From contig JAQUKH010000003.1 of assembly GCA_028719205.1 (NCBI GenBank), forward strand, positions 62,001 through 126,000: a stretch of 64,000 nucleotides of DNA. Direction: 5' to 3'. The notes beneath the pieces were generated by a model. The model had not been told where the DNA came from. It made no database searches and saw nothing but the letters and a program-made list of their open reading frames with translations. Position numbers and translations under genes: made by a program. This stretch comes from a bacterium (lineage in GTDB: Bacteria; JACRDZ01; JAQUKH01). How positions within the stretch are numbered: the first letter of the stretch is position 1; each line of letters opens with the position of its first letter. This document shows, one piece after another, positions 22,402 to 28,552 of the stretch.

Positions 22402-23328
22402 TTAAGAAATTTCGCTCAAATATTTTTCAACGGCCATTGCCGCCGTAGCTCCATCTCCGACGGCTGTAACTACCTGTCTTAAAAACTTTTTTCTTATATC
22501 CCCCGCCGCGAAAATACCGGGAATATCCGTTTTCATTTCATCATCTGTAATTATATAGCCTTTTTCATCCGTTTGCACTATTTTTTTTAATAAATCAGTA
22601 TTAGGTTTATGTCCCGCGTAAATAAATATTCCGGAGCAATCAATAAATGAAATTCCTTTAGTTTGGACATTTTCTATTTTTATTTTTTCGACCTGATTAT
22701 TTCCAGCGATTTCTTTTACTATTGAATTCAAAACGATTGTGATTTTGGGCTGTTTTAAAATGCGTTCCTGAAGTATTTTTCCCCCGCGGAATTCGTCGCG
22801 CCTGTGTATCAAATAAACTTTATTCGTGAATTTTGTAAGGAAAATAGCTTCTTCAAGGGCCGCATTGCCTCCCCCGACCACAGCAACATCTTTATTCTTG
22901 AAAAAAGCGCCGTCACAGGTCGCGCAGTAGGAAACGCCTCTTCCCCTGTATTTTTTTTCGCCGGGAACTTCCAGTTCATTAGGTTTCGCGCCGGCCGCGA
23001 TAATGATCGCGTCGCATTGAATATTTGTTCCGTCTTCCAGAACAATTATTTTTTCTTTAGCACCTGCGTTTTTTATTTCAGCTACCTGCCCGAATTCTAT
23101 TTTTGAGCCGAAATGTTTTGCCTGTTTTTCCATATTACTCATCAGGTCAGGGCCTTTTATCCCGTCAGGGTAACCCGGATAATTTTCAATAATATCTGTA
23201 GTGGCCGCCTGCCCGCCAGTACCTGTGCTTTCCAGAATTAAAGTAGAGAGAAATGCGCGGCTGGTATAAATCCCGGCAGACAATCCCGCCGGCCCACCGC
23301 CGATTATTACGACTTGGTATTTTTCCAT
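22402..23328 (-). CDS. trxB: Thioredoxin-disulfide reductase
   Basis: GGGPAG, SYCATCDG, GGGNAA, FAAGD. Confidence 0.97.
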   Translation of the reverse strand: MEKYQVVIIGGGPAGLSAGIYTSRAFLSTLILESTGTGGQAATTDIIENYPGYPDGIKGPDLMSNMEKQAKHFGSKIEFGQVAEIKNAGAKEKIIVLEDGTNIQCDAIIIAAGAKPNELEVPGEKKYRGRGVSYCATCDGAFFKNKDVAVVGGGNAALEEAIFLTKFTNKVYLIHRRDEFRGGKILQERILKQPKITIVLNSIVKEIAGNNQVEKIKIENVQTKGISFIDCSGIFIYAGHKPNTDLLKKIVQTDEKGYIITDDEMKTDIPGIFAAGDIRKKFLRQVVTAVGDGATAAMAVEKYLSEIS

Positions 23329-23359
23329 TTATTTAGTCTCCATATTTATATTATTGAAG

Positions 23360-23379
23360 CAAGGGGTCATGACCCCTTG
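23360..23379. repeat. Island palindrome copy 1
   Basis: CAAGGGGTCATGACCCCTTG, followed by TCTTT. Confidence 0.9.
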
Positions 23380-23468
23380 TCTTTATATTAGGATAATAAT
23401 ATACCATATTATGTTTCGGTTGACAAAAGAAATATGGGGGAGGGGGCGCAAATATATTGTATATTGAA

Positions 23469-23490
23469 ACAAGGGGTCATGACCCCTTGT
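23469..23490. repeat. Island palindrome copy 2
   Basis: ACAAGGGGTCATGACCCCTTGT, followed by CTTA. Confidence 0.9.
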
Positions 23491-23749
23491 CTTATTTCGG
23501 AGATTAAGATTAAAAATGCTTGACAAAACAATGGGGTGATATAAGATATAAAAGTAAGGAATTAAGAAAATAACTGTAAATTTGATATATGCACCTAAAA
23601 TGTTAATGGATATGATTTCTCTCTGTAATTTAAGAGAATAGGACATATCAATTCAAATATTATCTTGTCGGTTTAGCTGATTCTAAAAACTTTGATTGTA
23701 AAATGCCATTTTGAAAATGTCTAAGAGAAAAAGAAAGAAATATGAAAGA

Positions 23750-24871
23750 ATGAAAAGTGATAAAATATTAATTTGTGTTAGCTTAATCATTTTTTATATG
23801 ATTATGAGCGTATCGTATGCCGAATTGACTACTTCCCAAATTGCCAATGAATATTCTGCATCAGTGGTAACTATAGTTGCATTAGATGAAAATGATCAAC
23901 CTCTATCGTTAGGTAGTGGATTTTTTATAAGTTCTGATGGCGAAATTGCGACTAATCATCATGTTCTTGAAGGCTGTTCCAAAGCAATTATAAAAACAAC
24001 AAAAGGAGATAGAGGAGATATTATTGAAATTATAAAAGATGATCCTGTGTTAGATTTACTTGTTGCTAAAACTTCGCTTAAAAATACAAAACCTTTGCCT
24101 TTGGGAGATTCAGACATACTAGTAGCTGGTGAGGATATTGTTGCAATAGGAAATCCTGCAGGTTTAGAAGGAACTATATCAAAAGGTATTATCAGTGGAA
24201 TTAGAAAAAGTGGCGTTGTAAAGTTTATACAAATTACAGCTCCAATATCACCGGGGAGTAGTGGTGGGCCTGTATTTAATTTAAAAGGAAAAGTAATTGG
24301 AATTGCGACAGCATATCTTGATGTGGGGCAGAACCTTAATTTTGCCATGCCTATCAATTATCTAAAATTACTCGATTCTAAAAAAATACAATTAAATGCT
24401 TTACAAAAAGCCGCGTCTTCAAAGGATATTGAAAATGCATCTCAAATTGAAGCAACCCAAATTTATTATAATCAGTGTGACGATGGTACTTCGTTATGTA
24501 GTATCGATTTTGTATTAAAAAACAATAGTAATTATTTAATTAAAAATATAAAGCTATTATTTATTTATAAAACACACCATAAGGAATACCCTGAAGAATA
24601 TAATAATTATAATCTTTCATATGATGAACGACAGAAAATAAAGCCCACAAAAGAATGGGATGAGGTTGTTAGTTACTCGGCATCTACGATAGGAAAAACT
24701 ATATTGCCTAATCTAGCATTACAATTTTCTCACGAACATGTGGTGAAACATTATATGTATAAAAATCAATTTAATACTTTTGAAACAAGAGGATACGTAG
24801 AAATAAGGGTTTTAGACTATGACATTGAAAGATCGGCAGGGTCATCAACAATAGACCTACTGTTGAAATAA
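23750..24871 (+). CDS. Secreted trypsin-like (S1C) serine protease with non-PDZ C-terminal domain
   Basis: Signal peptide; GSGFF, TNHHV, DLL, ISPGSSGGP triad motifs; start uncertain between 23711 and 23750. Confidence 0.88.
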   Translation: MKSDKILICVSLIIFYMIMSVSYAELTTSQIANEYSASVVTIVALDENDQPLSLGSGFFISSDGEIATNHHVLEGCSKAIIKTTKGDRGDIIEIIKDDPVLDLLVAKTSLKNTKPLPLGDSDILVAGEDIVAIGNPAGLEGTISKGIISGIRKSGVVKFIQITAPISPGSSGGPVFNLKGKVIGIATAYLDVGQNLNFAMPINYLKLLDSKKIQLNALQKAASSKDIENASQIEATQIYYNQCDDGTSLCSIDFVLKNNSNYLIKNIKLLFIYKTHHKEYPEEYNNYNLSYDERQKIKPTKEWDEVVSYSASTIGKTILPNLALQFSHEHVVKHYMYKNQFNTFETRGYVEIRVLDYDIERSAGSSTIDLLLK

Positions 24872-24949
24872 TTTTAAATAAAATTTTACCAAAAAATGCT
24901 AACGTATGATATTTTCTCGCAAGGGTTAGTTGACCATATTTAAAAACTT

Positions 24950-25660
24950 TTATTTTTTAATTAACTCCTGTTTTATCTTTTCATTTTCAACATATAATTT
25001 TTCAAGTTTTCTAATAAAACCATCATCTAATTTTACTATGGGATAATCTTTAATAACTTTTTCAAATAAATCTAGTAAACCATAAGAAATATTAGCAATC
25101 CACCATAACCGGTGTTTTGTGAATAATATATCCACTTCATCAAGAAATGTTATAGTTCTTAGATTCTCTGCAAAATTACAATTATTTAGAGTTTGAGCTA
25201 TATTTGGATGAGCAGAATTTTTATTTATTATATCCTTCATATCTTTTATTTTTTCTGAGTAACTCCTATACTTTTCATCGAGCCATTTATAGGCCTTATC
25301 CTTTACTTTATCATTTGGATTTAAAATTCCATCAGTATTAACCGTTCCAAATTCATTTGTATTAGCTTCAAATAACCCATAGCATGCAAGAACAGCTGAT
25401 TCTAATGCATGCCGTAACATCAAATTCATTTGTACATCATGTTTTCTTAATGTTGATAATAATGCAAGGGTTAATGATTTTTGCACCTGAGACAAAAAAT
25501 AAATAAAATTTAAGGCTTTATCTTCATAACCTTCAACAAATTCCCAAAGTAAACCGACAAAATCATTTGCATTAACAAGCACACATCCATATTCTATAAG
25601 GGCTTTTTTAATTTGTTCATTTTCAAGTACTGCTGCGGTTTCAATTTGAAAGTATTTCAT
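24950..25660 (-). CDS. Hypothetical helical protein, possibly HEPN/DUF5677-like
   Basis: LRHALES motif and late SAHPN motif; starts 2 nt after the upstream gene; fold call is tentative. Confidence 0.55.
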   Translation of the reverse strand: MKYFQIETAAVLENEQIKKALIEYGCVLVNANDFVGLLWEFVEGYEDKALNFIYFLSQVQKSLTLALLSTLRKHDVQMNLMLRHALESAVLACYGLFEANTNEFGTVNTDGILNPNDKVKDKAYKWLDEKYRSYSEKIKDMKDIINKNSAHPNIAQTLNNCNFAENLRTITFLDEVDILFTKHRLWWIANISYGLLDLFEKVIKDYPIVKLDDGFIRKLEKLYVENEKIKQELIKK

Positions 25661-25662
25661 GT

Positions 25663-26499
25663 TTAAAGTATTTTTTCAAATTTTTTTAAGTCAATTGCTA
25701 AGTCCTCAAAATTTAGTTCGTCTTTACTGACTTTTCTATTATGGTATTTTGCAAAATATATTAATTTGCTTAATTCTTTTAGTTTATCAATATGCTTGTT
25801 AAGGTTATATGTAACATTTTTTTGTATTTCAGATAATTTATTTTGAGGTAAATTGATATAGTTCAGAATAGAGTAGAAATCAAAACACGAATTGCCGTCT
25901 ATATCCTTAAAAAAAGACTTGTTAAGATAATCGTTACCTAAAGTTTTAAAATAAAGCAAAAGTTTATAGCCAATAAGTATCCTGGGATTTTCTGCTTTTT
26001 TTTCTAATTTAACGGCTTCAAGATAAGCTTCACTAAAAACGAATAAACTGGTAGTTAAAGAGTTAATTTCTTTTTCATAATGTGCGCCGATAGAAATACC
26101 ACCTCTAATAACATACCCAGTTTGTTCTATAAACTCCATACAAAAGTTCCCTATAAGCATAAAATATAAATAAATACAATCGGAAATAACATTTTCTTTC
26201 GAAAAATTAGAATAAGAAAAATCTATCTTATTTAATGGTAAAGTAAACAAAATACTATCCGAAATAAACCTGACATTTATGATATTAAAAACTTTCTCCC
26301 AATAATTTTTTAGCTCGGTAACATCGGAAACAGGGACATTTTTCAACATTACTGCCAGATATTTATTTTTAAATTCACTTGTTTCATTAATCAATATATC
26401 CTCTATTCCTTGAATTGATTCAATATTATCTTTGAGTTTTTCTACAAGTTCCCCATATCCTAATATATCTATATATCCAACTATTGCCTTATCAATCAT
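25663..26499 (-). CDS. Class III nucleotidyl cyclase-fold protein
   Basis: YIDILGY, FISDS, IRGGISIG, AYLEAVKLEKKAENPRIL. Confidence 0.65.
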   Translation of the reverse strand: MIDKAIVGYIDILGYGELVEKLKDNIESIQGIEDILINETSEFKNKYLAVMLKNVPVSDVTELKNYWEKVFNIINVRFISDSILFTLPLNKIDFSYSNFSKENVISDCIYLYFMLIGNFCMEFIEQTGYVIRGGISIGAHYEKEINSLTTSLFVFSEAYLEAVKLEKKAENPRILIGYKLLLYFKTLGNDYLNKSFFKDIDGNSCFDFYSILNYINLPQNKLSEIQKNVTYNLNKHIDKLKELSKLIYFAKYHNRKVSKDELNFEDLAIDLKKFEKIL

Positions 26500-26562
26500 A
26501 AATAATCCTTTCCCTTTGTATTATAACTCAAACACGGGAATTTACATCCTTTCATTTCTGAT

Positions 26563-26964
26563 TTAACAAGGGGTCATGACCCCTTGTCTTTGTGTAATGG
26601 TAACCCCTTGCTTTTCGGCCATTTGTCCTTGGGTATTCCCATGATTGATATTGTATTTTCGTGAACTGATTGATTTTAGTTTTTGTACTATTAAATCCCG
26701 TTCTGATTCTTTGCATACCAGTAAAAGATGAACATGATCTTGGCAGATGTTGTAGGCTATAATTCGTAGTTTCTCTTGATGGGCGATTGATGCGATATAT
26801 TTGGTTATTTCTATTCCGTCTTGATCATCCAGCAAAATGGGTTCAACAAACGGCTGCATTCCTTTGTCGATACGCGATTGTTTGATCACTGCTTCGAATT
26901 CAATCATTCTTTCGCTTACGCGGCTATTGTGTGTAGCCCAAGTAATATGATAAACTTTATACAT
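26563..26964 (-). pseudogene. Truncated IS200/RAYT-like HUH Y1 transposase
   Basis: YHITWATHNSR, DHVHLL (HUH), VQKLKSISSR; the ORF ends at palindrome copy 3 before any catalytic-Tyr helix. Confidence 0.8.
26566..26587. repeat. Island palindrome copy 3
   Basis: ACAAGGGGTCATGACCCCTTGT, followed by CTTT. Confidence 0.9.
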
Positions 26965-26977
26965 ATTAATTAATGAA

Positions 26978-26999
26978 ACAAGGGGTCATGACCCCTTGT
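26978..26999. repeat. Island palindrome copy 4
   Basis: ACAAGGGGTCATGACCCCTTGT, followed by CTTT; lies between the nnr stop and the transposase start. Confidence 0.9.
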
Positions 27000-27001
27000 C
27001 T

Positions 27002-28552
27002 TTACGTTATAATTAACCTCATTGCTTTATAAAAATTCTCTGGCAAATCCTTTGCAGTAAAACCCGTTATTCCTTTTTTCTCCGCCAGTAAATCACCAGT
27101 TTTCCCATGCAAAAAACATGCAAGTTTTAAAGCGTCAGCGGGGCTTAATTTCTGGCCTGAAAAGGAGACAACCATTCCGGCTAATACGTCACCCATGCCG
27201 GCCTGCGCCATGCCGGGATTGCCTGTGGGATTAATGAACTGCTCTCCGTTCGGCAGGGAGATAATTGAATAAGCGCCTTTAAGTACAAGATAAATATTAT
27301 GTTTTTTAGCAAAGTTACGGCTTATTGTTAAACGGTTTGCTTGAACTTCATTTGAAGTTATTTTTGATAATCTGCCCATTTCTCCGGGATGAGGTGTTAG
27401 AAGTGTGGGATATTTTCTTTTTCTTAAAATAGATATATTTTCTGAAAGGGCGTTCAGCCCATCGGCGTCAATTACCAGCGGTTTATCTATCTTTTCTGTT
27501 AAAATATTTATTAATTTTATTGTTTCTTCATCCTGCGACATTCCGGGCCCTAATAAAACTGCATCTTTTGTTTCTGCCAGTTTTAATATTTTTCCTAAAG
27601 AGGAAAGGGCGAAGCTCTTGTTCTTGGTTTCAGGCATTGGATGCAGAATAATTTCAGTTACGCGTTTGCTTAAAGAATTATAAAGTGATTCAGGAACCGC
27701 GAGTTCAACAAGGCCCGCGCCGCTTTTTAAAGCCGCTTGAGCTGCAAGGAGAGGCGCCCCTATATAATTCTTTGAGCCGGCTATAATAAGGACCTTACCC
27801 CTTGAACCTTTGTGTGTGGAGGCCGGCCATGAAGGAATAAGCGGTTTAATGTCTTTTTTTTCTAAAAGATTAATTAAAATCTTATTGTTATTTAAAAGCT
27901 CCGGTGGAAATCCTAGTTTTATAACTTCGAGTTTTCCCGTAAAATCTATCGCGGGCGGCATAAATAATCCGGGTTTTGGCAGATCCATTGTTATAGTTAA
28001 ATACGCTTTTACAGCGATTGTTTCTATTTGTCCTGTATTTGCGTCTACACCGGAAGGGATATCAAGTGAGATTACAGTCCTTTGAGATCTATTTATTGAT
28101 TCAATTACTTTTTGGTGAAGGTCAGGCATTATGCCTTTAAATCCTATTCCAAATATCGCGTCAATTATCAGATCGCAATCTTGCAAATATTTATTTATAA
28201 TACTGACATTTTTCTGAGTAAGAAGGGTGATATCAAATCCGGATTTATGAAGGATATCAAGATTTGTTTTAGCCTCATTTTTAAATTTAGCTGGGTTTGA
28301 TAAAAGAAAAATTTTTAAACTGGCATTAGAAATAAAACTAAAGTGCCTTGCAAGGCATAATCCGTCGCCGCCATTGTTTCCATGCCCCGCGAAAACTATT
28401 ATTTCTTTATTTTCAAGATCGCCGAAATAATTATTAATAATTTTATTTGAAGCCCGGCCCGCATTTTCCATCAAAATGATACCGGGTATGTTATATTTTT
28501 TCAGGGCAAGATGGTCAATATTTTTTATTTCATCTGGAAAAGGGATTTTCAT
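27002..28552 (-). CDS. nnr: Bifunctional NAD(P)H-hydrate epimerase/dehydratase
   Basis: MENAG, GNNGGDG, DIPSG; HKGSRG, DADGL, TPHPGE, GMGDVLAG. Confidence 0.96.
   Translation of the reverse strand: MKIPFPDEIKNIDHLALKKYNIPGIILMENAGRASNKIINNYFGDLENKEIIVFAGHGNNGGDGLCLARHFSFISNASLKIFLLSNPAKFKNEAKTNLDILHKSGFDITLLTQKNVSIINKYLQDCDLIIDAIFGIGFKGIMPDLHQKVIESINRSQRTVISLDIPSGVDANTGQIETIAVKAYLTITMDLPKPGLFMPPAIDFTGKLEVIKLGFPPELLNNNKILINLLEKKDIKPLIPSWPASTHKGSRGKVLIIAGSKNYIGAPLLAAQAALKSGAGLVELAVPESLYNSLSKRVTEIILHPMPETKNKSFALSSLGKILKLAETKDAVLLGPGMSQDEETIKLINILTEKIDKPLVIDADGLNALSENISILRKRKYPTLLTPHPGEMGRLSKITSNEVQANRLTISRNFAKKHNIYLVLKGAYSIISLPNGEQFINPTGNPGMAQAGMGDVLAGMVVSFSGQKLSPADALKLACFLHGKTGDLLAEKKGITGFTAKDLPENFYKAMRLIIT

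Follow-up and report, generated by a model that had tools for sequence, protein, structure and literature searches.

How did a truncated transposase gene and an AT-rich block of three genes come to lie between trxB and nnr, with copies of one palindrome at their borders? This question is raised by a stretch of bacterial DNA of 64,000 nucleotides, referred to here as the window (GTDB lineage Bacteria; JACRDZ01; JAQUKH01; NCBI GenBank assembly GCA_028719205.1, contig JAQUKH010000003.1, positions 62,001 to 126,000). The source assembly, G000, is metagenome-assembled (2.59 Mb, 68 contigs, 92.7% complete, 37.6% GC). An initial annotation of the window proposed that the palindromes are recombination sites of an integron-like gene-capture system driven by a Y1/HUH enzyme. 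REPtrons are genes of REP-associated tyrosine transposases (RAYT, or TnpA-REP) with flanking repetitive extragenic palindromic (REP) sequences (Nunvar 2010; Ton-Hoang 2012; Quentin et al. 2018, PMC6006769). Our analysis suggests that the trxB-nnr interval is probably the decayed remnant of a REPtron-type, hairpin-associated Y1 element, to which foreign DNA has been joined at the hairpins.

We first describe the palindromes. The 20-nt sequence CAAGGGGTCATGACCCCTTG occurs in four exact copies in the window, numbered here from trxB to nnr (Table 1). This agrees with the initial annotation, in which the coordinates 23469, 26566 and 26978 of copies 2 to 4 include an extra A. The single flank polarity described there also held, as TCTT stands to the right of all four copies; an A stands to the left of three. 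No match with up to 3 mismatches was found in 100 dinucleotide-preserving shuffles of the window. As single-stranded DNA, each copy is predicted to fold into a 9-bp stem with a 4-nt loop (approximately -9 kcal/mol, z approximately -4 to -5). The foot of the hairpin reads (A)AGA-CAAGGGG on one side and CCCCTTG-TT(T/A) on the other, with no GT[AG]G tetranucleotide. When up to 2 mismatches were allowed, eight copies were present in the whole assembly, half of them in the trxB-nnr interval.

The transposase gene is cut at one of these copies. Its open reading frame (ORF) matched the Pfam family Y1_Tnp (PF01797) at 38.3 bits against a cut-off of 23, over profile positions 20-90 of 121 only. The HUH motif is kept (DHVH, residues 76-79). 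The ORF ends approximately 60 residues early, and the catalytic tyrosine of the C-terminal helix is absent. The last codons are those of copy 3 itself, translated as QGVMTPC, confirming that the ORF stops at this copy, more precisely inside it. Homologues are 146-226 aa long, except for three short partial ones, and carry LWxQKY and Y..NR.KH beyond the point where the window gene breaks off. In the full-length homologues P0002 and P0003, QGVMTPC and the palindrome lie inside the ORF and reading continues past them; P0014 and P0019 have QGGMPPC, encoded by a palindrome variant compensated on both arms. Among solved structures, the IS200/IS605 transposases ISDra2 TnpA (PDB 2XM3) and IS608 TnpA (2VHG) were the nearest relatives by profile. 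In a profile alignment of the clade, the tyrosine of Y..NR.KH stands opposite the YIESQ motif of ISDra2 TnpA. This match had an E-value of 6.8e-11, compared with 0.39 for E. coli TnpA-REP, placing the clade nearer to IS200/IS605 TnpA. The window gene is single-copy in the assembly, and no remnant of its missing C-terminal part was found anywhere in the assembly (best tblastn E 0.22). As the tyrosine is missing from the sole cognate Y1 gene of the assembly, the enzyme is dead and the locus is now inert.

To place the enzyme in its family, we scanned 185,579 species, one genome each, and kept the best 80 of 176 relatives. Their phyla include Ignavibacteriota, Bacteroidota, Gracilibacteria, Spirochaetota, Thermodesulfobacteriota and Deinococcota. 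We looked at the loci for perfectly matched, GC-rich palindromes, requiring a stem of 8 or more and a loop no longer than 6. Such a palindrome was present in the gene or within 300 bp of it in 71 of the 80 relatives; it lay inside the gene at 47 loci and within 300 bp outside it at 40. The density per kb was 1.38 inside the gene, 1.53 near it and 0.16 farther out, which is an approximately 9-fold enrichment in or beside the gene. Two hot spots were observed inside the gene: hot spot A at nt 250-350, within the loop that links the HUH motif to the Tyr motif (19 of 80), and hot spot B at nt 380-470 (28 of 80), where the commonest form encodes NKGLQPLV.

The commonest hairpin form among the relatives was CAAGGGG-N6-CCCCTTG. 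The centres vary yet stay symmetric (TCATGA, GCATGC, TTGCAA, TAGCTA), and in-gene and flanking centres agree within one locus, for example in L026, L027, L056 and L070. Among homologues, one palindrome is read in several frames, giving QGVMTPC, RGHDPL or KGLQPLV (GHDPL in P0040 and L103). It is therefore the DNA, not the peptide, that is conserved. The pattern was counted 22, 9, 4, 76 and 4 times in five host genomes carrying a full-length gene, and the reversed control gave 0. The initial annotation had paired the Y1/HUH enzyme with the hairpin, and the family-wide co-occurrence and compensatory variation bear this out at the sequence level: a distinct Y1 clade, characterized by a THNSR N-terminus, DHVH and Y..NR.KH, has this palindrome as its cognate single-strand hairpin. 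This clade is apparently new to the literature. No relevant paper was found with the palindrome strings as queries; the supplements of Quentin et al. 2018 (REP tables, Figure S10) were outside this search and might hold clade members.

The hairpins of the window can be assigned to places in such an element. L026 and L027 are full-length, free-standing and in the window copy's own tree clade. Both have three direct units, at approximately -82/-56, 297/315 and 546/589, that is, upstream of the gene, inside it and downstream of it. The core of copy 4 lies at -34 to -15 relative to the window gene, 14 bp ahead of its ATG, which is comparable with the upstream hairpins of L026, L027 and L056 (-45 to -85). 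Copy 3 lies at nt 378 of the gene, and the internal hairpin of L038 at nt 364. L038 is the nearest relative of the window copy (62% identity over 114 aa, with the same N-terminal insert) and is nested in a type IIG gene. By position, copy 4 is the upstream hairpin unit of the Y1 gene and copy 3 the internal one. Copy 2 is the left cargo junction and possibly the original downstream hairpin of the gene.

The arrangement resembles that of REPtrons, in that a single-copy Y1/HUH gene is flanked by its own palindrome, which also occurs at scattered gene ends, and the hairpin varies together with the enzyme. RAYTs are recognized by a REP family of their own that is both flanking and dispersed; here, copies were found at -15 and in the gene, and four more elsewhere in G000. 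The differences are equally clear. The hairpins have no GT[AG]G foot, and the CAAGGGG stem is conserved across phyla. The copy number is low (8 in G000 and 4-76 in the five other hosts), and the window copies are direct rather than inverted REPIN pairs. Judged by motif only, the clade, with DHVH and Y..NR.KH, matches none of the 12 subclasses that Quentin et al. list in their Table 1 (PMC6006769). The same source describes REP copies in frame inside the tnpA-REP genes of subclass 2.4, with the motifs NH[IFV]H and YIxNNP and GT[AG]G-footed REPs. Like subclass 2.4 as described there, the present clade has in-gene palindromes (47 of 80, including the 19 at nt 250-350), and copy 3 of the window lies at that place. 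Unlike subclass 2.4, it has DHVH and Y[IV]xxNRxKH instead of the two motifs above, on a comparison of motifs. The window copy scored 31 bits with the NCBIfam model REP_Tyr_transpos (NF047646; cut-off 80), and five full-length relatives scored 41.9-53. With transpos_IS200 (NF033573; cut-off 55), the window copy scored 39.4 bits, in a range of 36-47.

Between copies 2 and 3 lies the AT-rich three-gene cargo already recognized in the initial annotation. The GC content of the Y1 remnant is 38.3%, and that of the cargo is far lower (Table 1); by composition, the cargo is foreign. Because of this difference in GC content, the cargo probably arrived separately from the Y1 gene. No DNA match that would point to a donor was found in phage or plasmid collections. 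In the orientation of the gene, the cargo starts two bases past the core of copy 3 and ends at most five bases before copy 2. At each end, no more than a few bases separate it from the hairpins, which therefore mark recombination joints. At the level of sequence, then, the gene has been cut at its internal hairpin and foreign DNA joined to hairpins at both ends. The arrival of the cargo had been proposed as the event that removed the C-terminus of the enzyme. The exact cut at copy 3 and the loss of the catalytic part agree with this, but it is only one of two readings, since no 3' remnant lies beyond the cargo. Plain insertion of the cargo into the Y1 gene was considered and is unlikely, as it would leave such a remnant. 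The lack of a 3' remnant in the assembly points to replacement, or to deletion between two direct hairpins, rather than to simple insertion.

We compared the interval with the two available genomes of the same genus, G001 and G002, in both of which trxB is 79% identical to that of G000 at the DNA level. In G001 (98% complete), 53 bp separate trxB from nnr, and this gap contains neither an island nor a palindrome. In G002, the two genes are on different contigs and have other neighbours. The trxB-nnr interval is lineage-specific on this evidence, the insert being present in G000 and absent from G001. Both flanks of copy 1 are conserved in G002, where the palindrome is absent. Approximately 41 bp of the spacer between copies 1 and 2 is ancestral trxB-upstream DNA; therefore, copy 1 is a separate solo insertion. 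Homology to G002 ends approximately 30 bp to the left of copy 2, and the foreign DNA starts there. The hairpins had been described as partitioning the interval into a transposase segment, a cargo and a spacer. The ORF map is as stated, but the spacer is ancestral DNA, and a partitioned island did not hold.

Three further observations concern these genomes. A hairpin flank at G001:C122 was considered as a homologue of the spacer and rejected, as it adjoins an unrelated gene. In G002, trxB (L012, C60) faces a chorismate mutase/prephenate dehydratase gene with an in-frame stop, and nnr (L010, C79) has an ftsB-like gene next to it. The genes facing trxB in G002, pheA and that for DAHP synthase, were followed as a clue to rearrangement at hairpins and dropped, as they had no tblastn match in G000.

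The hairpin unit is also found elsewhere in the genus. G001 has eight copies with the same flank polarity, and a search with the clade profile detected no Y1 gene of the THNSR clade in either G001 or G002. Eleven distinct solitary hairpin sites were identified in G000 and G001. Seven are clean small indels between conserved genes: six are filled in G001 and empty in G000 (approximately 36-41 bp), and one is filled in G000 (approximately 22 bp). At one of the G001 indels, the unit stands in place of an ordinary terminator hairpin of G000. One site is a shared orthologous copy (G000:C15 and G001:C57). The remaining three (G000:C39, G000:C6 and G001:C122) are at or in lineage-specific DNA. The palindrome is thus scattered mostly as hairpin-only sites, with a minority touching variable DNA. 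These comparisons indicate that the unit, of approximately 40 bp, is itself a small element that is mobile or unstable, and that its association with variable genes is loose at best.

Two of these sites adjoin larger segments. G000:C39:2619-4120 is a 1.5-kb one-gene insert encoding a secreted-looking ORF of 477 aa, and G000:C6:74815-77164 is a 2.35-kb segment with a ParE-like ORF, where the contigs of the relatives break. Neither has a match in G001 or G002, and each has a hairpin at one edge only. A second small repeat family was observed at G000:C39:8236-8305; it is approximately 25-30 nt long, with more than 25 near-exact copies in G002 and few in G001. Distant ORFs with a Y1_Tnp domain (98-344 aa) are present in all three genomes, at G000:C14:25790-26116 and G000:C26:1964-2137, on C76, C41 and C136 of G001, and at six places in G002; none is on a contig with a hairpin.

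These results can be arranged into a history that we regard as probable. The ancestral element would have been a Y1 gene with three direct hairpin units, upstream, internal and downstream, as in its full-length free-standing relatives. Approximately 250 bp past copy 3, coding for the catalytic third of the enzyme, would have been lost, and 3.1 kb of AT-rich foreign DNA, running to copy 2, would now stand in place of the lost part. Breakage and joining at two direct hairpins would be the most likely cause. The joints may have been made by Y1-catalysed single-strand excision and pasting, or by slippage or recombination between the 20-28-bp repeats, either in one replacement event or by a deletion between direct repeats and an insertion at a hairpin. 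Copy 1 would be an independent solo insertion of the approximately 40-bp unit into ancestral intergenic DNA. We infer in what order these events took place, and which enzyme made the joints, from sequences in which Y1 activity and slippage or recombination look alike.

Several points weigh against this history. The comparison within the genus covers two genomes only. The island-free site of G001 could be a secondary deletion instead of the ancestral state, and the polarity of the event rests on parsimony because G002 is rearranged at both genes. Contigs from three runs of one study contained no alternative joints at the hairpins, although contigs drop rare variants. Four copies would share one orientation by chance in 1 of 8 cases. 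Finally, the units differ between species that have no intact cognate Y1 gene, so that another enzyme or replication slippage may move them.

Table 1 Features of the trxB-nnr interval and its flanks (positions in the window).
Feature	Position	Strand	Evidence or remark
trxB, thioredoxin reductase, conserved left flank	22402-23328	-	Pfam Pyr_redox_2, E 8.5e-55
Hairpin unit copy 1	23352..23391, core 23360-23379	+	exact match; -9.4 kcal/mol
Ancestral intergenic stretch inside spacer	23393..23433	.	88% identity to G002:C60:5518-5558, which immediately precedes trxB of G002
Hairpin unit copy 2	23462..23501, core 23470-23489	+	exact match; agrees with copies 1 and 4 in polarity and flank type
Cargo block, 3,077 bp, 28.4% GC	23490..26566	.	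0.33 percentile of 4,789 genome windows of equal length
HtrA/trypsin-like serine protease	23711-24871	+	Pfam Trypsin_2, E 2.4e-30, residues 68-198
h236	24950-25660	-	no Pfam, PADLOC or PHROG match; 12 homologues only, 44-56% identity
h278, class III nucleotidyl-cyclase-like	25663-26499	-	no Pfam family; AlphaFold and Foldseek
Truncated Y1/HUH transposase, 133 aa, THNSR clade	26563-26964	-	Pfam Y1_Tnp; without catalytic Tyr region
Hairpin copy 3	26567..26586	+	exact match; by position the internal hairpin of the Y1 gene, hot spot A; breakpoint; right cargo junction
Hairpin unit copy 4	26969..27008, core 26979-26998	+	exact match; 3 bp past nnr stop codon
nnr, bifunctional NAD(P)H-hydrate repair enzyme, conserved right flank	27002-28552	-	Pfam Carb_kinase, YjeF_N

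Alternatively, the entire 3.6 kb that extends from copy 2 (or copy 1) as far as copy 4 may have entered as one IS200/IS605-like transposon carrying the Y1 gene and passengers, with a later deletion between the in-gene and downstream hairpins that killed the transposase. IS200/IS605 elements are mobile segments bounded by direct subterminal hairpins on one strand, and they transpose without target duplication. The window shows this layout, its interval is absent from G001 with ends that coincide with direct hairpins, and ISDra2 TnpA is the closest solved relative of the enzyme. A deletion between direct in-gene and downstream units, placed as in L026 and L027, would give exactly the observed truncation. 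However, the 10-point GC gap between the Y1 remnant and the cargo argues for separate origins, and no second copy of the 3.6-kb unit was found in G000 or any searched genome. Unlike IS200/IS605 elements, members of the clade are single-copy, and the same hairpin is found at both ends of the gene and inside it. We therefore consider entry as a single transposon possible but doubtful, and retain the decayed REPtron-type element as the preferred explanation.

Many relatives of the window enzyme are associated with type IIG restriction-modification genes. Such a gene surrounds the Y1 module or lies beside it in 53 of the 80 relatives, and at 42 of the 77 loci from which a tree was built, a rule-based call scored the module as embedded. 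In this tree, embedded copies are mixed with free ones, and the window copy groups with both. In 14 aligned embedded or restriction-modification-flanked loci, the module occupies one site, between FxWxxEFPxxF and GGFDvViGNPPY, and at the loci with a Pfam scan it interrupts the Eco57I profile. The Y1 module is in frame inside type IIG ORFs of 870-1,330 aa, for example at L081:2327-5978, L037:779-4567, L053:2333-6334, L060:2831-6142 and L063:916-4143. In L081, from an isolate genome, all four genomic hairpin copies lie within 5 kb around the type IIG gene. At L062:773-4477 and L080:3900-7400, two cognate hairpins stand precisely on either side of an intact type IIG gene, next to a free-standing Y1 gene; the gene order is RM-Y1 in L062 and Y1-RM in L080, where RM is the restriction-modification gene. 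The window copy belongs to the same Y1 clade and hairpin family as the nested copies, whereas it is itself free-standing and truncated. No close type IIG gene of the nested kind was found in G000. A literature search found no paper linking Y1/IS200 enzymes with type IIG enzymes, and methylase fusions are not mentioned in the accessible parts of Quentin 2018 or Bertels 2017.

L103 was considered as a second case of truncation at an in-gene hairpin and rejected, as its ORF runs through three in-frame 105-bp hairpin units. These tandem units (L103:2540-2860) each contain the 20-nt palindrome of the window and are inserted into the loop of a nested Y1 module that is intact apart from them.

A bolder proposal, which we put forward tentatively and hold to be rather unlikely, is that the hairpins are portable single-strand exchange sites. 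Any DNA flanked by two direct hairpins could then be replaced by other DNA. Here, the 3' third of the enzyme gene, between its internal and downstream hairpins, would have been swapped for a 3-kb foreign, defence-like block, and the same chemistry would move the Y1 module in and out of type IIG genes in frame. If true, this would be a Y1-driven, hairpin-bounded exchange of segments that moves defence genes.

We also analyzed the genes of the cargo. The protease has an N-terminal hydrophobic segment and a C-terminal half without family assignment; NCBIfam Do/HtrA families matched it, all under cut-off. PADLOC gave protease-domain matches only for this protein and none for h236 or h278. The single NCBIfam match of h236 was at chance level (E 0.079). 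The AlphaFold model of h278 had a mean predicted local distance difference test score (pLDDT) of 89.7. Foldseek matched it to adenylyl and guanylyl cyclases and to the Pycsar cytidylate and uridylate cyclases 8JSF and 8JSZ (E approximately 1e-5 to 4e-4). Residues D11, D81 and R132-G-G are invariant among the relatives of h278, which presumably fits the class III cyclase fold. Among 80 of the 148 metagenome loci found with h278 relatives, none contained the family palindrome, a Y1 gene, h236 or the protease. A conserved module of h278, h236 and the protease was accordingly rejected, since all 80 loci are free of relatives of h236 and of the protease. Relatives of h278 have varied neighbours, which, by reading of their ORFs, include toxin-antitoxin-like genes and one large gene; such variable surroundings resemble defence islands. 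The two-gene unit of h278 and h236 may be an anti-phage module, and a defence role of the cargo is plausible.

These data bear on the integron-like system of the initial annotation, in which the hairpins would be attC-like sites and a working Y1 system would repeatedly capture and exchange cassettes. Direct hairpins do bound the cargo at both ends within a few nucleotides, its composition is unlike that of the Y1 remnant, the type IIG genes of L062 and L080 are bracketed by cognate hairpins beside Y1 in two orders, and lineage-specific DNA borders 3 of the 11 solitary sites. The resemblance to integrons extends no further than folded single-strand hairpin sites that bound a gene block. There is no tyrosine-recombinase integrase (none by Pfam on all six ORFs of the interval and flanks), attI, Pc or single-gene cassette array, and the enzyme is of another class. 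Moreover, the window has a single cargo block with three genes on both strands, no h278-relative locus has the hairpins, and 7 of the 11 solitary sites are hairpin-only indels between conserved genes. The genes bracketed by hairpins beside free-standing relatives encode an enoyl-CoA hydratase, a protein with an FGE-sulfatase domain, CotH and an FAD oxidoreductase, which are of the ordinary housekeeping type expected from local spread of a repeat. The window enzyme, in addition, has no tyrosine. Integron-like gene capture was therefore not upheld, and we regard it as improbable.

It is still less probable that the palindromes are ordinary intrinsic terminators or insulators unrelated to the transposase. 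All four copies are terminator-like on the + strand, copy 4 also on the - strand directly after nnr; other copies lie at gene ends, and at the G001 site described above the unit replaces a terminator hairpin. Yet the T-rich tails run along the + strand while four of five nearby genes are on the - strand, and one copy is within a coding sequence. The hairpin family follows the Y1 clade across phyla, with the enrichment in and beside the gene and the null reversed control reported above. Termination would explain at best copy 4 after nnr, not the family-wide link. An Rfam match to MIR169_8 over copies 1-2 scored 34 bits, where the gathering score is 107, and was discarded as a chance resemblance of two hairpins to that family. 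Lastly, a metagenome-assembled genome in 68 contigs may contain chimeras at repeats, including at copy 3, but an assembly artefact is hardly credible, because a separately built public contig (19,393 nt, depth 8.9; probably from the same sample and thus not fully independent) covers 22900-27500 with 0 differences and the repeat, with a core of 20-28 bp, is shorter than usual assembly words.

We conclude that the window itself probably holds a dead remnant, a free-standing offshoot of a Y1/hairpin clade, and not a working gene-capture system. The usual view of REP sequences and RAYTs is that of small repeats looked after by a domesticated transposase. To this picture, the locus adds a separate clade of Y1 enzymes, in which the stem of the hairpin is conserved from phylum to phylum and the hairpin lies inside the gene for the enzyme itself. 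It also provides natural evidence for the hairpin as a breakpoint, as a gene has been cut to the nucleotide at its internal hairpin and joined to foreign DNA. The approximately 40-bp unit comes and goes between sister species without an intact cognate enzyme. Together with the in-frame nesting in type IIG genes, these features raise the testable question of whether the hairpins mediate segment exchange in defence loci.

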